Positions 44,361-53,638 of a DNA stretch of 64,000 nucleotides are shown piece after piece. This DNA is from a bacterium. Its GTDB lineage: Bacteria; UBA10199; 2-02-FULL-50-16; JAJFLM01. Under the pieces are notes generated by a model. That model made no database searches, was not told the origin of the DNA, and saw only the letters and a list, made by a program, of their open reading frames with translations. Each line of letters begins with the position of its first letter. The stretch's first letter is position 1. Both the position numbers and the translations under genes were made by a program. Where the stretch lies: NCBI GenBank assembly GCA_965216315.1, contig CBDCFN010000016.1, forward strand, positions 2,304,001-2,368,000. Direction: 5' to 3'.

Positions 44361-44395
44361 AAAAAAAGGGCGACCCTTAAAGGCCGCCCTTTTTT
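44361..44395. terminator. Bidirectional intrinsic terminator
   Basis: A7-GGGCGACC-CTTAAA-GGCCGCCC-T6 between convergent genes. Confidence 0.85.
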
Positions 44396-44412: not shown

Positions 44413-47400
44413 TTAGATTCGCTTGCGGGTCACCGCCAAGGCGCTCATCGCCGCGAGCATCAGCAGTAACAGTCCTGCCAAAGGTTGCTGCGAACCGTTC
44501 GGGGTCAGGGCACAGCCGCCGCCGTCGCCGACCGCTTCCTCGCCTCCTTCGCCCTCACCTTCGCCTTCACCTTCGCCTTCACCTTCACCTTCACCTTCAC
44601 CTTCGCCTTCACCTTCACCTTCGGCTTCACCGGCGCCGCCGCCGACCAACTCAAAGGCGCCGAGATCACAGTTATCCCCTTCAGGACGCGCCGTCCCGAG
44701 TTGATCTTCAACGGCGCAGGTCGCATTATTACCCGCATCGACAGCCGGGCTTCCCGCCTGCAGCGCAATCGTGAGAGTATCACCACCGTTATCCGCAAGA
44801 CCCGCAGAGTCAAAGAGTGGATCGCCGGTAATCACAAGAGCAGAGTCACCAATTATATCACATTCAAAGGTGTCACCGATAAAGTTGGCTCCTATCGCAA
44901 TCAGAATAGAATCGTCGTTATCCAGGTCAAATTCATGAAAGCAATCATCAACTCCCGTTCCGGGGCTAGCATCATTATTTCCCGCGATAATCGAATTAGC
45001 CAACGAGGCATTATCGACGTCGTCATAGACGTAAATACCCCCACCGTCACCATTGGTCAAACCACCGCTATCAGAGTCAGCGACATTGAACGCGACTGTC
45101 ACGTTATTGAGAGCGAGAGAGTAATCTTGTTGATAGATACCCCCACCGTGTCCAGATGCTTCGTTATTGGCCACGGTTGTATTGTACAGGCCGACATGCC
45201 CATAGCTCCAGATTCCGCCTCCATTACAATCATCAGCATCATCATCAAATCCAGTTGCGCGGTTTCCACTAATTGTGCTGTTCGTAATCGTAAGACCGTA
45301 TTCATTTTCGTTATGGATTCCTGCACCACCTTCACCATCATCCATGTTATCATAACACCCAACCAAGATATTATCCGCAATCGTTGAGTTATAAACCACG
45401 GTCACATACGCACGAATTCCACCTCCATTACCTTGATACACCACATTCCCCCGTATCGTCGAATTGTCCACGATAAGATAGTCATTGTCGTAAATCCCAC
45501 CACCATAATAATTGGAATCCTGGTCGTGATTGGCTATATTCTCTTCAATTAAACTGTTTTCGACGTAAAGCGTGTAATCATTGTAAATCCCACCACCGTC
45601 CTCATCGGCTTTATTTTTACTGACGGTGGAGTTAGTCAGGTAGAAGACGTCGCCATTGTTATAGATACCGCCGCCTCGATTGTCATAGGCGTAATTTTCC
45701 GAAACGAGGCAGTTATCCATGGTGGCCGAATAACCTGAATAAAGACCACCGCCGCTACCATCGGCTCGATTGTTCCGGATTTCACAATCTTCGAAGACAT
45801 GGGCTCCAGCCGACAGATAAATCCCCCCACCATCACTATGAGACCTGTTGTTAAGGACTTGGCTATTAACCAGGCTTAAGCCGCCAGAATCCACATGAAT
45901 CGCCCCACCGGAGCCACCGGCCTCATTGTTCGATAACTCACTATTGCCACTGACAATCAGGGTACCGTCACCAAGGTAAATTGCACCCCCATCGGAAGAA
46001 GCGTCATTGTGGGTGAATTGACTATTCTCAACGGTCAGGCTGCCATCACTGTCGGCATAAATGCCTCCGCCGCTTGCCGCCTCATTACCTGTGACGAGAC
46101 AGTTTATCAGCCGAAGCACGCCTGAATGACTAATGTAGATAGCCCCGCCATTTCCGGCTTGATCCCCATTCTGGAGAGTGAGCCCCGAAATCGTTACTCC
46201 GACGCCGTCATCAGTCGGATCGATTTGAAAGATGCGATCAGCGGTCGCGGGCCCGTTCCCATCAATAATACTGGTCCCATCCCCGGCCCCCTGAATCGTG
46301 ATACTCTTATCGATCAGAATCTGCCCCAACCCTGGATCGATTGCGATTGTCATATTCGCTGGGATATTGATGATGTCACCATCATCCGCCGTGACAATCG
46401 AGGTCCGTAACTGTCCTACAGCACCGGTATCGCCGTCGTTGTCAACATTAATGGTTTCAGCCTGGACCGATCCAACCGTCAAACCCAGCATTAATGCCGC
46501 CATTGAGAACGTCTTCATGACCTTACCCATATTTCGACTCCTCTTCCGAAAAATAGAGAACAACAACATCGACAGGAGCCCCAGCGCCGGCAGGGTGGCT
46601 GCTCCGTTCAAGCCGGCTTCGCCGCTTACGAGACTACAACCGCCACCGGAACCACCGTCCGAATCGCACGCATCACCGATGCCATCCCCATCCGCATCCG
46701 CTTGGTCGGCATTGGCATCATCCGGACAGTTATCCGTACCATCATCAACACCGTCTCCATCAGTATCACCGGCGTCACCACCTCCATCACCATCATCACC
46801 GTCGCCATCGGCGGCATCACCGTCGCCGAATTCGAACGCTCCCAGGTCACAAGCATCCCCTTGGGGTCGCTCGACACCCCGTTGATCCGCTCCCGGGCAG
46901 CTATCCGCACTTGCGGCATCGACCGCAGGACTCCCGGCCTGCAGAGCCAGGGTCGGCGTATCACCACCGTTGTCGCTGACTTCCGTCCCAACGAAAAGGG
47001 GATCGACATGCATCACATTCGCGTCGTCCCCGATAATTTCACAGCCAGTCGGATCCTGCACGATGTTCACACCCAGCGAACTCATATTATCACCTTCTAC
47101 GGTAAAATCGCTGTAGCAATCAGGTGCCTCGGCACCAGGACTCGCATCGATGTTCCCGGCGATGATGGTATTCTGAAAACTGACCTCATCATCATTATAA
47201 ATACCGCCGCCGTTACCGCCGCTGGTGCCGCCGCTATTGGCATCCGCGACGTTAAAAGCTATAGTAACATTCTGAAGCGTTGTGTTTTGACTATAGACGA
47301 AGATCGCTCCGCCATGACCATCCGCCTCGTTACCGACAAAGGTCGAATTGATGACGGTCAAAGGATATTCCGTCCAAATAGCCCCGCCATTGGCATCATC

Positions 47401-50400
47401 GGTCCCGTCAGTACCAAGAGCCCGGTTATTGATAAACGTGCTGTTGCGAACCACGCATGGCTCCGCCGCACAGGCAATCGCCCCACCTCCGTCTACGTCG
47501 TTTCGCGCCACGTTCTCTTCAAACAATGAATTTTCAACGACCAGTTCTTCATTGGCATAGATCCCGCCACCGCTGTTTTCGTTAGCCACGTTATTCCTGA
47601 TCGTAGAATCACTTACGACGAGATAGTATTGGTTATATATTCCGCCACCATCACTCGTTTCAGCCACATTCCCTTCAATGAGGGAATCTGTAATGACGGT
47701 CCCATAATTGTTGTAAATCGCTCCACCTTCATCTTCCGCCACGTTCTCCGTAAATGTGCAGTTACTTATATAAGTCGTATAGTAACTATATAGAGCTCCG
47801 CCGTAACTCTCACTGGAATTCTGGTGAAAGAGCGAATTAGTAATTGTTGCTGCCACCTCGTCGTCATAGATAGAAACTGCGCCACCGTAGTCACTCGCCG
47901 TATTGCCGATGAATTCCGAACCATTGATATTCAATGATCCGTCGTCTTCAAAATAAACAGCCCCACCGTAACCACCAGAAGGGTCAGCCGTATTATTACG
48001 GAATGATGCACCCTGTATATCGAGTGAACCAGCATAAAAATAAATACCGCCCCCGTTATCATCCGCATAATTATTCGTGATCTCACTCCCCGGTCCAACA
48101 ATAACGGTCGCCGTGTCGCTGACATAGATCCCACCGCCATAATCGGCTCGGTTACCATCAATCCGGCTGTTCTCCACCGTCAGTGTCCCATGGTCCTCTA
48201 TATAAACCGCCCCTCCATCGTCGCCAGCATCATCAACGTCGATGCCGGAAATGACACTATTGACGAGACGGACCGAACCGAATTCTCGGATCATGATCCC
48301 GCCGCCGTCCTCATCGACACGTCCGCCGGTTATAGCCATATCTTGGAAGGTAACCGATACGCCCTGGCCGTCGTTGCCTTCGTTGTAGTCGACCTCAAAG
48401 GCGCGATCACCGGTGCTGTCCCCATTGGAGCTGATCGCCGATTTGTCTCGGCCCTGCCCCTTAATGGTGATACTGACATCAATATCGAGGTCCGCGTCGC
48501 CGTCAGAATCCAAGGCCCCCCCTTCAGGGGTGAGCACGATCAATCCCTCGGGAAGCTCGAGGACGTCACCGTTCTGCAGGACACCGCTATTGATGATGAA
48601 ACGAATTTGGCCCGCCTCGGGGGGATCCGTATCCTCGAGACTCGTGACCTGATAGGTTGCGGCCTGGCTGACGCTCGGTAGCGCGACACCCATCAATGTG
48701 AACATCATGACAGCCATTAGTAAATTACGCATCGGTCTTTCTCCCCGTCTGAAGTAGAGCATCCCTAGAATCCCGGCCAGCAAGAGGGCCGCAAAGCCAC
48801 CCGCCTGTGAACCGGTATCAGTGCCTGCAGACAAGGAACAACCCCCACCGGAGCCACTGTCGCTATCACAGACATCTCCGATACCATCGGCATCGGCATC
48901 CGCCTGATCCGCGTTGGCATCATCGACACAGTTATCACAGACATCTCCGACGCCGTCGCCATCCGCATCCGCCTGGTCGGCATTCGCGTCACTGGGACAA
49001 TTGTCGTCGGCGTCATCAACTCCATCGCCGTCACCATCACCCGCGGCGCCGCCACCACCGCCGCCACCACCAGGAGCTGCATCGGGATCCTGGTCGGATT
49101 CGAGGGCACCCAGATCACAGGCCGCCCCGATCGGACGCGCCGTCCCGAGCTGGTCATCTGCTTCACAGGTATTGTTATCCCCGGCGTCAATCGCGGGACT
49201 TCCCGCCGCCAAGGGCAGGGTACCATCGGAGGCCAGTCCGGCCGCATCAAACAAGGGGTCCACGTTCAGGACGCTCAAGATATCTCCCGTCACTTCACAG
49301 CCAACGAGATCTTGAACAATGTTCGGGCCGGCGGAGGTCACCGTATAGTTGTCGAACTCGAAATCATTCCAGCAATCATGCGACGACGGAACCGTACTCG
49401 CATCCGTATTGCCCGCAATGATGCTATTGGAAACACTCACAAAATCTTCGTTGTAGAGACCGCCGCCATCGCCGCCGGAGGCCCCACCTTCATTGGCGTC
49501 CGCCGTATTATTCGCCAACGTGACGTTATTGAGCCTCAAGTCATCGTAGTTGACGATCCCGCCCCCATGACCATCCGCTTCATTGTTGACGATTGTCGAA
49601 TTGACGACCAGCACACTCCCATCGGCATAAAGACCACCGCCCTCAGGGTCGTCACTCGCATCGATTTCGCCCCGCGCGCTATTTCCAGTCAAAGCTGAAT
49701 TACGAATCACGGTGCTGGTGCCATCAGCAAAGATCCCACCCCCGCCATCGATATCGCCCGAAGCCACGTTATCCGTGATCGAGACCTTTTCGAAAACGGC
49801 AAATCCATTCTGATAAACGCCACCGCCATCGCCGCTCGAAGCGACGTTTTGCGCAATGCTTCCGCCGGTGACGTAGAGAAAATCCGAAGAATCATTGAAA
49901 ATACCACCACCGGAACCGCCCGCATCATCCTCATCGGCATCCGCGATATTCTTGGAAACCGTCGTCATCTCGAGCGTGACAGTCCCCTCGTTGTAGATAC
50001 CACCACCGTCACCGTCCGCTCGGTTGCCGGAAATCGTGCTATTATTGATCGTCAACAGATCTTGCGTAAAGATACCCCCACCTGCACCATTATCTAACGA
50101 TCGGTTATTATTGATCTCACAATTATCAATCGACATGGCCTGCAGATTGTGGATGCCGCCACCGCCATTGCCGCTATTGTCCGAGGAGTTCCCGGAGATG
50201 GTGCAGGAAGACAGATTGACACTGGAAGAGTTATTATAAATTCCACCCCCTTGATCGGCCTTATTGCCCGTCACCTCCGTGTTCGTTAGGGTCAGGGCAC
50301 CGGTATCGACATAAATGCCCCCACCGCCACTGCCGGCGTCGTTATCCTCGATCTTTGAATCGGAACCCACAATCACCATGCCTTCATCGGTATAAATCCC

Positions 50401-53331
50401 ACCACCACTACTCCCCGCAATGTTATGCGAGACCGTCGTGTTGCTGACGATCAAGGCACCCGAATCATCGACGTGAATCCCGCCGCCATTGGTCGACGAC
50501 TCATTCGCAAACACGATCGAATCCTTCACTTCGAGCGAACCATTACCGTTGAAATGGATCCCACCGCCGGGAAAACCGGCTATATCGCCGCGCTGAATCG
50601 TCACGCCGCTGATCACGACACTGATATCACTCCCGGCCGGATCGACGTGGAGCGCCCGACCGGAGGTCACGGCCCCATTCGCGTCGATGACGCTAAGACC
50701 CGCGCCCATGCCGCTGATCACCACGTCCTCCAAAACATCGATATCACCATCGACATTGGCATCGTCATTCGTGCTTGGAATCAACAAGGTAAAGGTACCC
50801 GCCGGCAGACTGATGACATCAATTGCAGTCGCCGTCGCTTCACCGGCCAGACACGTGTCTACAGCGGCGTTCGTATTAGCCGCCTCAATGGCCTCCCGAA
50901 GCGAACAGAACCCATTGTTCGTGCTCGGATCATCATCGAGTGTCTCCGTAACGGTAATCGTCTCTGCCCGTACCGGCAGAGGCGCCGCCACCACAGCGAG
51001 CATTGCCGCGACTGCTAAGGAACCAAACATCTTACGCATAAACCGTCTCCTCACCATTAAGGGCAGCGTCAATAGACCCAGTAAGGCCAACGCGGCCGTC
51101 GAACCCATTCCTTGAGAGGACCCAGCACTCAAGGAACAACCGCCCCCGGTATCACCGGCGTCACCGGTATCACAGACATCACCGATGCCATCGCCATCCG
51201 CGTCGGCCTGATCGGCATTCGCATCGCTGGGACAGTTGTCAGCGGCATCAGCCACGCCGTCGCCGTCGCTGTCCGCATCCGCATCACAGGCGTCGCCAGT
51301 CCCGTCTCCGTCAGAGTCGGCCTGATCCGGGTTAGAGACCCCGACGCAGTTATCGCTGGCATCGTCAATCCCGTCACCATCGGCATCCGCATCACAGACA
51401 TCTCCAATCCCATCGCTGTCGGCATCTTCTTGACCGGGGTTGGCATCGCCGGGACAGTTGTCGTCGGCGTCATCGATGCCATCATCGTCGCTGTCATCGT
51501 CTCCAAACTCGAAGGCCCCAAGATCACAATCGGCGTCTTGCGGCCGGGCCACCCCACGCTGATCGGTCGCTTCACAACTCCCTTGATCGCCCTTATTCCA
51601 CGCCGGACTCGCCGCCGTGATGGCCATCGTATCCGTTGGACCACCGTTATCGGCCAAGGCCGCGAGACCCGGATCTTCATGAATGACGCTACCGGCATCA
51701 CCGATGATGCTGCAATCCGTATCATCTTCGACCAGATTGGGACCCACGGCCGTCACATTGGTTCCCCCGTCGTAGCAGTTCGGACCCATGCCCGCCGCCG
51801 TATTATCTGCAATAATGCTATTACTAAGCGTTGTCGAATCCGTATTGGAAAAACCGCCGCCGTCGCCACCCGCTGTATTCCCAGCAATAGTGACATTGTT
51901 GAGCAACGTGTTGGCACCTATAGAAAGCGCTCCACCATCATCAGCCGCCTCATTGCCGTTAAACGTGCTGTTAACGATCACCCCGAAGTCAGAGCTAGTA
52001 TTATAGATTGCACCGCCGTCACGACCGGCCCCCAGCGCCTTATTCAACGAAAAGGTACTATTGCGCACAATGAACTCATCCGCCGAATACAGTCCTCCGC
52101 CATGCCCATCGGCGGTTTCGTTTTGTAAAATGGTTGAACTATCAATCGACGTATCGGCATTCGCGTAAACACCGGCGCCTTCCGAATCAGCCCCTTCCGT
52201 CTTATTGAGCTCGATCGTACTCGCCCGTATCACCAGCTCGCCTTCGGCATAGATTCCACCGCCTTCGCCGTTACCCGCGGCATCGCGCCCCGAGGTATTT
52301 TGCTTAATCGTACTATTATCGACAATCAGGGAGTCATTGGTCCAAACCCCCCCGCCGTCATTGGCAGCAGTGTTATTTTCAATATTCGTGTTGTCCAAAA
52401 GAATCGTCAAATCATCACTATAAATCCCGCCACCATCATCACCACTAGCGGCCTCATCGGTTTTATTCATCGCGACATCAGAGTTGGCGATGACAAGCGT
52501 TCCACTGTTAAAAATCCCACCCCCATCTCCGTTGGTCGAGGTATTGCCCATAATCTCACTATCGGTAATCAGCGTCGCGCCAGTCGCGTAGATACCACCG
52601 CCGTTTTCATCGGCCGTATTGTCTCGAACGATACTGCTATTAAGGATCTCCAGGGTGCCCCCGCTTGAGTAGATTCCTGCTCCGTACCCGCTCGAGGCGA
52701 AAGCCGCGACCGGATCTGCTTCATTGAGATCGATCACGCTGCCTGTCACGACCACATGGCCATCGGAGTTATAAATCCCGCCACCATGGTCGGCTGATGT
52801 ATTGCTTCTAACCGTGCTGCTATCGACGGTCAGATGAGCTTCACTCGCAACATAGATCCCCCCACCGTAATGATTATCACCCGTCGTTACGTTGCCGGTG
52901 ACCATCGAACTGAAAAGGTGAAGCGACCCGGAATGGTCGACATAAATACCGCCACCGTTAGCAGCAACACTCCCGTTCCGAATCGTTAGCCCGGAAATCA
53001 CGACCTGGACACCCTGATCATCATTATCGATCTCGATGACCCGATCCGTCCCGCCACCATCGATGATGCTCGTCGCAAAGTCGGCGCCCCGCAACGTAAT
53101 GCTCTCATCGATTTCGATCGGTCCCAGCAACAAGGTGATTGTCGTACTGGCCGGGATTTCAATCACATCACCGGGGTTGAGGGCCAAATTCTCCGCCAGG
53201 AAGCGAAGCTGACCCGCGCTCCCGTCATCGCCGGTATCCGTGACTGTGAAAGTCGCGGCCTGGACACTGGTACTGAGCATGGTCAAGGTTAAGATTGTGA
53301 ATAGACGTCGGCAGATGCGGGTGATCCCCAT
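44413..53331 (-). CDS. ~2970-aa four-module surface polyprotein (each module: signal peptide, beta-helix/choice-of-anchor-Q-like body, acidic stalk, GGGC-TM-basic sorting signal)
   Basis: GGGIY/GGAI repeats; LADNGG.T.T.AL..GSPA.DAG...DQ.G..RP....CDLGAFE four times; CSLREA motif in module 2; TSP3-like repeats; start ATG 53331 with AGGGGG SD. Confidence 0.88.
44546..44632 (-). repeat. Hexamer repeat encoding (Glu-Gly)n
   Basis: (CCTTC[A/G])n on + strand; [10 protein letters not shown]...GEG. Confidence 0.9.
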
Positions 53332-53638
53332 AAAAAGCCCCCTATGGTTGGTATCATTGAAAAAAAAGTGATTGTGCTGAAGTGCGCGCTTCCCTCGGTT
53401 ACCCATTCATTTCCCCCTAAAGCTAACGAGTACAACGTGCTCCGCGTCAAACGGCTGCGAAGTCTAACTGAAGTTACGTCAAAAAGTCAAAAGACTTTAT
53501 TTCCGTCAGCCGCAGACGGCCAAACTGATCCTTTTTGCCTGTAATTTCAAGTGGAAAAGCAGGAGGAACTAAAAATTCAGTGTTCTGTAGAATACGGAAG
53601 CGGAGCCAATTGGTTGTTATTCCACAGACTCTTAGCCC

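Follow-up and report, generated by a model that had tools for sequence, protein, structure and literature searches.

Start-site-like motifs at the junctions of a four-module polyprotein gene, possibly inherited from an operon of tandem genes

The longest minus-strand open reading frame (ORF) in the window, i.e. the whole 64,000-nucleotide stretch analysed here (positions 2,304,001 to 2,368,000 of contig CBDCFN010000016.1, assembly GCA_965216315.1, from a bacterium of the UBA10199 lineage), spans positions 44413–53406, encodes 2997 amino acids (aa) and consists of four paralogous modules fused head to tail. At each of the three junctions between modules (J1, J2 and J3), a Shine–Dalgarno (SD) motif is written into the codons of the basic cluster that closes an internal sorting tag, and an in-frame ATG follows at start-site distance and opens a complete signal peptide. 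These three motifs are unlikely to be a product of chance (p ~0.02 against tag-matched controls and far lower against all internal ATGs). The reading that we favour, and to which we give an even chance of being correct, is that the sites were inherited from an operon of tandem genes and are at most weakly used for initiation; they probably still support some internal initiation, which would be plausible at the junction ATGs and dispensable for the polyprotein design. The sequences directly show the motifs and their non-random codon make-up, the anatomy of the modules, a gene for the cognate protease and what has become of the junctions in relatives.

Architecture of the four-module ORF

The four modules share 41–43% pairwise identity. 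Each consists of a signal-peptide-like N-terminus, Chlam_PMP/right-handed beta-helix repeats, a choice-of-anchor Q domain (NF041518; 78.6, 53.4, 77.3 and 73.4 bits in modules 1–4, all above the cut-off of 25) and a C-terminal tag, and most also contain thrombospondin type 3 (TSP3) repeats. In module 4, a (Gly-Glu)n run occupies the place where the other modules have TSP3 repeats (window positions ~44530–44640, minus strand), and contigs of public runs seemingly break at this repeat. The true start of the polyprotein is likely to be M26 (ATG at 53331–53329), because an AGGGGG motif (53338–53343) lies 6 nt upstream (CATAGGGGGCTTTTT ATG; duplex energy -9.3) and the module-1 orthologue of a second genome of the same family (G001) starts at the equivalent position. 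The stop codon is TAA at 44415–44413. All features of the ORF lie on the minus strand.

The signal peptides are predicted by eye, from the succession of n-, h- and c-regions and from small residues at positions -3 and -1. That of module 1 (53257–53331, 25 aa) ends in an AxA-type site. The following three start at the junction ATGs, namely 51039–51037 at J1 (module 2; 50965–51039, 25 aa), 48732–48730 at J2 (module 3; 48661–48732, 24 aa; also compared with the corresponding junction of G001) and 46530–46528 at J3 (module 4; 46459–46530, 24 aa). Their c-regions read VRA/E, SQA/A and VQA/E (the slash marks the putative cut) after 15–18 hydrophobic residues, and one of them begins with MRKMFGSL. 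Tags 1–3 are internal and are followed by no stop codon: the basic cluster is succeeded by a single residue and then by the Met of a complete signal peptide. Each junction therefore looks like an ordinary tag end, which extends one residue past the last basic residue, abutting a Met.

The fusion is not an assembly error, because all three junctions are spanned unchanged by contigs assembled independently from four public runs, which cover two samples of one study, and because homologous fusions were found in other assemblies. The four runs may include the source sample of the window and show only that the junctions are assembled identically. Besides assembly error, an alternative genetic code and read-through were also dropped as explanations, since the junctions contain no stop codon whatsoever and the homologues elsewhere are likewise fused. 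None of the listed run variants touches an SD motif or an ATG, and 27 further differences lie outside that listing. Runs X3 and X4 carry A>G at window position 46549 on the plus strand, a synonymous change (TTT to TTC, Phe) one codon before the basic cluster of J3.

Start-site-like motifs at the three junctions

At J1, the SD motif GAGGAG (51047–51052) lies in the codons GTG AGG AGA, 7 nt from the ATG at 51039 (GTG AGG AGA CGG TTT ATG). The J2 motif, GGGGAG (48741–48746), lies in CGG GGA GAA, 8 nt from the ATG at 48732 (AGA CGG GGA GAA AGA CCG ATG), and that of J3, GAGGAG (AAGAGGAG; 46538–46543), in AAG AGG AGT, 7 nt from the ATG at 46530 (CGG AAG AGG AGT CGA AAT ATG). The letters, spacers and coordinates of these motifs are exactly those given in the original prediction, which had also pointed to the true C-terminal cluster as an internal control; that cluster (CGC AAG CGA ATC TAA) indeed contains no GGAG.

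The 3' end of the 16S rRNA of this genome (...GGATCACCTCCTTTCT) carries the canonical anti-SD sequence, and all three junction motifs are complementary to it, stand at start-site spacing and precede an in-frame start codon. Within the 15 nt before the ATG, AGGAG occurs at 169 of 1253 long ORFs in the genome compared with 67 of 9,893 internal ATGs (~20-fold enrichment), and the modal spacer between GGAG and ATG at ORF starts is 7 nt, the junction spacers being 7, 8 and 7 nt. The four-module ORF has 37 in-frame ATGs; three of them have GGAG at 5–9 nt, and these are exactly the three junction Mets. Genome-wide, the same arrangement is found at 206 of 9,893 internal in-frame ATGs (2.1%).

The codons that form the motifs are rare ones. 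AGA and AGG make up 6.7 and 5.5% of the Arg codons of the genome, respectively (~12% together; 1823 long ORFs), and AGR accounts for 5 of the 9 Arg codons in the junction clusters versus 4 of the 55 in the remainder of the ORF, counted from M26 (Fisher p=0.0016). Immediately downstream of the junction ATGs, Arg is encoded by the common CGT. In the closest-matched control, GGAG or GAGG was present at all three junctions and in 2 of the 12 terminal tag clusters of the genome (p=0.022). When synonymous codons were used as the null, p was 0.024 at J1, 0.027 at J3 and 0.37 at J2 (product 2.4e-4). By duplex energy, computed with a 13-nt anti-SD, only 3.3% of the 363 internal ATGs that stand behind a basic cluster reach -7.9 or stronger pairing.

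It is improbable that the motifs are a chance by-product of the basic cytoplasmic loop, the purine-rich Arg, Lys, Gly and Glu codons of which would yield GGAG-like strings by themselves. Such a by-product would explain the occurrence of GGAG or GAGG in 2 of 12 terminal tags and at 2 of 12 fused junctions of relatives, the raised share of AGR among Arg codons in terminal tag clusters (25% versus 12% genome-wide), the J2 motif, which follows from its amino acids, and the four other in-frame ATGs of the ORF that pair equally well by energy. It does not account for a core at 7–8 nt from the ATG in three of three junctions when 2.1% of internal ATGs have GGAG at 5–9 nt, for the small fraction of ATGs behind basic clusters that reach -7.9, or for the two Fisher tests and the product of the synonymous-codon null.

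Homologous modules and junctions in relatives

Residues 2130–2480 of the ORF (the J3 region) were used as the query in the homologue search. The phylum-level set comprised 93 species genomes, identical to the class-level set, and a close match (E<=1e-25) was obtained in six of them, including that of the window (G000). The window's own family (f1) is represented in the set by three species-level genomes. Fused homologues with DNA were found in G001 (family f1) and in G010 and G074 (family f9), and five fused database proteins (P0002, P0003, P0004, P0007 and P0011; 2858–3060 aa) share 31–46% identity over the J3 region. G010 contains 2-module and 4-module ORFs in tandem, and in G074 single-module genes, a 3-module ORF and a 4-module ORF stand within one array; G077 and G027 also have single-module genes. 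The array of G074 (contig C151, loci L056 and L057, minus strand, ~7290–28875 in strand coordinates) contains at least 10 modules in a row, in the order single, 3-module ORF, 4-module ORF and two more singles.

The true starts of the module genes of relatives are all preceded by an SD motif (11/11), namely GGAG in 10 and AGGGGG in one, with energies of -7.3 to -12.1. Three of these 11 starts read GAGGAGAC, as at J1, and several unfused module genes show the arrangement GAGGAGAC-N5-8-ATG. At the fused junctions of G001, G010 and G074, an ATG is present in the n-region at 6 of 12 and GGAG or GAGG at 2 of 12, and none of the 12 reaches -7.9, the duplex energy of the weakest site in the window. 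The expectation that the SD-forming codons would be conserved at homologous junctions was borne out at J2 of G001, the only orthologous junction from family f1 with DNA, where the ATG is kept with a GAGG core 7 nt upstream; it failed in family f9, where ATG is found at 5 of 11 junctions and missing at the other 6, and GGAG or GAGG occurs at only 1 of 11. Of the nine junctions in the database proteins P0002, P0004 and P0007, six have no Met, as judged by eye.

J2 can be compared most closely. Module 2 is 62% identical between the window and G001 (63% over the aligned stretch), and in the 18 nt 5' of the J2 ATG the two genomes share 13 of 18 nucleotides and only 1 of 6 residues; each of the two tracts is 15/18 purine (hand count). 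The J1 region of G001 is unassembled, with contig breaks on both sides, and the query used found no module-4 orthologue in G001 or G002.

A second polyprotein is encoded in the same genome as the window (L060:2895–6392; G000:C16:1082894–1086391, plus strand) and contains two beta-helix modules. Its junction consists of GGGSCGCDI, a transmembrane (TM) helix, the cluster RFRRHKVK and a signal peptide (ASLFLVV...HVEA/A). The basic cluster contains GGAGG (in CGG AGG), and no Met or other start codon stands behind it. The second module stops just after the choice-of-anchor Q-like region, without a tag.

The modules were also placed in a tree from a quick search (38 rows of >=500 aa; G001c306_m2, of 317 aa, was left out). 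Some neighbouring modules of one ORF are each other's closest relatives (m1 and m2 of G074q4, and m1 and m2 of G010A; support 99), a pattern suggestive of duplication or gene conversion within the fused genes. A search of genome contigs with a 10-module alignment, which produced over-general peptide patterns, returned only three distant loci. Among metagenome contigs, 79 loci of <=51% identity were obtained, and the six junction candidates among them were judged from their strings to be false (multi-pass membrane proteins or repeats).

Origin and possible use of the junction sites

In the ancestral state that we envisage, the four modules would have been separate, tightly packed tandem genes, each downstream gene having its SD motif within the last codons of the upstream gene, i.e. 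the codons for the Arg/Lys cluster that ends the tag. Small changes would then have removed the stop codons, and the tag, the basic cluster and the next signal peptide would have become one membrane hairpin in a 2997-aa precursor. A chain started at a junction should give rise to the same mature products, because a signal peptide and a tag of its own belong to every module, and the inherited sites would therefore be harmless and could persist in family f1. Judged by their sequences, the relatives form a graded series, from separate genes with SD motifs, through fused genes with SD and ATG (f1), to fused genes with decayed sites (f9). The decay in f9 and the start-less L060 junction in the same genome show that the design does not need the sites. 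The ancestry of the sites and any initiation at them are inferred from sequence.

The original prediction had offered two explanations, internal initiation that yields nested precursors and remnants of an operon that had lost its stop codons. The latter is the better supported of the two, through the GGAG at 10 of 11 unfused module starts and the graded series among relatives; the former is compatible with the sequence, given the canonical core, the modal spacing, the ATG and the complete signal peptide that follows. In its stronger form, internal initiation would be under selection: one 9-kb mRNA would give the full precursor and nested 3-, 2- and 1-module precursors, which may compensate for ribosomes that drop off over 3000 codons, or may increase how much of the later modules is made. 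We regard this as possible but doubtful. A canonical core at modal spacing before ATG, rather than GTG or TTG, stands at three of three junctions, rare AGR codons occur exactly where the SD is built, with CGT just after the ATG, and J2 of G001 retains ATG and GAGG with nucleotide identity well beyond residue identity. The J2 stretch is also weakly structured, with a minimum free energy over -30..+30 nt of -6.2 (5th percentile of internal ATGs), whereas the values at J1 (-12.2) and J3 (-12.5) are average for internal ATGs. Selection is likewise difficult to reconcile with the fused junctions of relatives, 6 of 12 of which lack ATG and 10 of 12 GGAG or GAGG, with the L060 junction, which has GGAGG and no start codon behind it, and with the J2 motif, which its residues explain (p=0.37). 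Bacterial genes are known to contain in-frame internal starts, and these can be mapped (Meydan et al., preprint 10.1101/520783).

Several observations weigh against the inheritance of unused or little-used sites. The fusion at J2 is older than the split of two genera, both of which have ATG with GGAG or GAGG at 7–8 nt, and this persistence speaks against a pure relic, because a relic should decay; at 62–63% identity, it argues for some use of the site. The conservation of nucleotides beyond that of residues hints at nucleotide constraint, and thus at use rather than inertia. The comparison covers the only orthologous same-family junction with DNA (G001 J2). No unfused ancestor with an SD inside the basic cluster of a tag was found among the relatives' loci compared, and none of the 12 terminal tags of the genome is directly followed by a start. 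The module tree has 12 of 35 inner branches well supported, and the age and number of the fusions cannot be dated from it. A separate set of findings weakens the case against chance: the J2 motif is set by the residues R-G-E and not by codon choice (the synonymous null above); M594, M900, M1705 and M2108 match or exceed the junctions in duplex energy through GGTGA-type pairing, so duplex energy alone does not set the junctions apart from other in-frame ATGs of the ORF; one terminal tag elsewhere in the genome contains a strong SD-like run (CGG AGG AGG) without a start behind it; and local mRNA folding is start-like at J2 only.

A programmed slow-down, in which SD-like strings or rare AGA and AGG codons pause the ribosome once the tag helix has been translated and before the following signal peptide, while the hairpin inserts, is very improbable. 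The exact distance of 7–8 nt to an ATG would have no role in such a pause, at which the tag helix would still sit in the exit tunnel, and the fused junctions of relatives mostly lack the motif; what speaks for it is the clustering of rare codons at the loop and the conservation of a purine-rich J2 tract in two genera. Fluman and co-workers reportedly proposed SD-like pause sites in membrane-protein mRNAs in 2014, and pausing at SD-like sequences is said to have been disputed by Mohammad and co-workers in 2016.

Inheritance from tandem genes and continued use could also be combined in an operon–polyprotein hybrid kept by selection, in which each module could be translated by ribosomes arriving from upstream as well as by ribosomes that start anew at the module's own site. 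We put this forward only tentatively. If it were true, four separately sorted surface proteins would be made from one ORF without the polarity of a 3000-codon message, and relatives without the sites would have moved on to a pure polyprotein.

Sorting tags and the predicted processing protease

All four tags consist of GG-C-(S/A)-L, ~20 hydrophobic residues (a helix, by eye) and an R/K cluster. Tags 1 (51040–51144), 2 (48733–48846) and 3 (46531–46644) are internal, read GGCSL before the TM helix and end in the basic clusters RRRF, RRGERP and RKRSRN, respectively; tag 4 (44416–44520, 35 aa) is terminal, its last codons being CGC AAG CGA ATC, without GGAG. The MYXO-CTERM hidden Markov models considered were TIGR03901 and TIGR03382. 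Against a cut-off of 20 bits, TIGR03901 gave 15.0, 18.7 and 15.3 for tags 1, 2 and 4 and did not list tag 3, and the scores with JDVT-CTERM stayed at or under 18.2 bits (cut-off 27).

In the passages of PMC11980579 that define the class, MYXO-CTERM is a short motif with an invariant Cys, followed by a TM helix and an Arg-rich cytoplasmic end. This tripartite build is shared by the four tags of the ORF and by eleven tags on other proteins of the genome. The class is also defined by a C-terminal location, from which three of the four tags of the ORF depart, being internal and continuing into a signal peptide. Terminal tags of the GGCSL, TM and basic kind number 12 in the genome, eleven on other single-module proteins and one at the end of the ORF itself. 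The sole CPBP/Rce1-like gene of the genome encodes a protease of the myxosortase family (Mrt_core NF040914, 118.1 bits, cut-off 100), the best full-length model of which is MrtP (175.8 bits, under the cut-off of 250). No exosortase was found in the genome, and all rhomboids were below the rhombosortase cut-off. From the tripartite build, the twelve terminal tags, the sole CPBP gene of the myxosortase family and the lack of an exosortase, the tags of the ORF are therefore best read as myxosortase substrates, although they fall outside the curated MYXO-CTERM model.

The processing of the precursor, which is deduced by analogy, may be modelled on the MYXO-CTERM scheme set out in parts of PMC11980579. 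Module 1 would be exported by the Sec system, the tag helix would act as a stop-transfer sequence with the basic cluster staying in the cytoplasm, and the chain would re-enter the membrane through the next signal peptide. Signal peptidase I would cut after each signal peptide, and myxosortase at each GGC motif after lipidation of the Cys. The predicted end products are four separate surface proteins.

Most of the single-module genes and final modules of family f9 have the ending ...GGCSLIR followed by a stop, without a TM helix or basic cluster, and variants of this ending are ...GGCSLIRE and ...GGCSLIPHP in G074 and ...GGCSLIAG and ...GGCSLVR in G077 (L058). At the GGCSLIR endings of L031 (6563–6583 and 15814–15834), the TAA stop is followed by a hairpin-like inverted repeat; endings of this type also occur on contig C151 of G074 (L056/L057) and in L059. 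The f9 ending, a Cys plus four residues, is reminiscent of a CaaX box, and the sorting protease of the lineage belongs to the CaaX-protease family. The genome of the window differs from f9 in that full tags are kept at the termini.

Other features

A divergent Lgt paralogue lies directly 5' of the myxosortase gene on the same strand, abutting or overlapping it, in six of six genomes from three families (G000:C16:1904961–1906365, minus strand; L061:1465–2256 and L061:2114–2965; relatives L153, L154, L155, L156 and L157). It scores 78–103 bits with TIGR00544, always under the cut-off of 118.9, and the canonical lgt of G000 (157 bits) is located ~5 kb from the pair. In the parts of their paper that treat lipidation (PMC11980579), Guo, Haft & Wall consider Lgt the leading candidate for the enzyme that lipidates the tag Cys, and a dedicated lgt-like partner of myxosortase would fit this idea.

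Consensus scans alone placed a promoter-like site (TTGACT-18-TAGACT; 53461–53490, minus strand) 5' of the ORF and a terminator-like hairpin with a T run (44366–44378, minus strand) directly 3' of its stop codon. No promoter-like site was listed immediately 5' of J1, J2 or J3 in the scan.

Comparison with known systems

Bacterial polyproteins in which sorting tags alternate with signal peptides have barely been described. SD motifs and ATGs at the seams would make the history of such a gene readable, since all three stages exist in one small phylum, and the transition from operon to polyprotein can be tested because the separate, fused-intact and fused-decayed states coexist there. The three short motifs also offer a simple experimental handle on how far module ratios depend on internal starts.

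In translationally coupled operon genes, the SD of a gene lies within the 3' end of the upstream gene. The junctions described here likewise have an SD in the last codons of the upstream unit and a start codon abutting it, but no stop codon, and coupling by termination and reinitiation is therefore impossible, the upstream ribosome reading on. Viral and eukaryotic membrane polyproteins such as those of flaviviruses alternate stop-transfer and internal signal sequences and are cut by signal peptidase. In its inferred processing, to which the likeness is confined, the four-module precursor would resemble them as one chain threaded back and forth and cut into exported units; it differs from them in being bacterial, in a second cut by a sorting protease and in the presence of ribosome restart sites.

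The literature search found nothing in print on start sites at junctions between a tag and a signal peptide, and the main text of Haft's preprint contains neither 'polyprotein' nor 'internal'. For secreted bacterial polyproteins with internal signal peptides, it returned a single sentence, in the portions of PMC11980579 concerned, on a two-part protein, MXAN_5598 of Myxococcus xanthus, which has an internal MYXO-CTERM motif and probably arose when two genes fused (Guo, Haft & Wall 2025, PMC11980579). As far as those passages describe it, this protein shares with the ORF a mid-protein tag of the myxosortase type (Cys motif, TM helix and basic cluster), an explanation by gene fusion and a proposed cut, and the passages make no mention of ribosome-binding sites at its junction. 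The ORF differs in having four paralogous modules and three internal tags, each abutting a signal peptide and preceded by an SD motif, and its tags score below the MYXO-CTERM cut-off.

The in-frame internal starts of Meydan et al. (preprint 10.1101/520783), which give alternative N-terminal proteoforms and were mapped by retapamulin-assisted ribosome profiling, are similar to the junction sites in that an SD-like motif stands at start spacing before an in-frame ATG in a long ORF. The sites in the window differ from the starts described there in lying at the seams of a gene fusion and in that initiation is predicted from sequence alone; moreover, a complete signal peptide would open each shorter product, and the mature proteins would be those that the full precursor yields.

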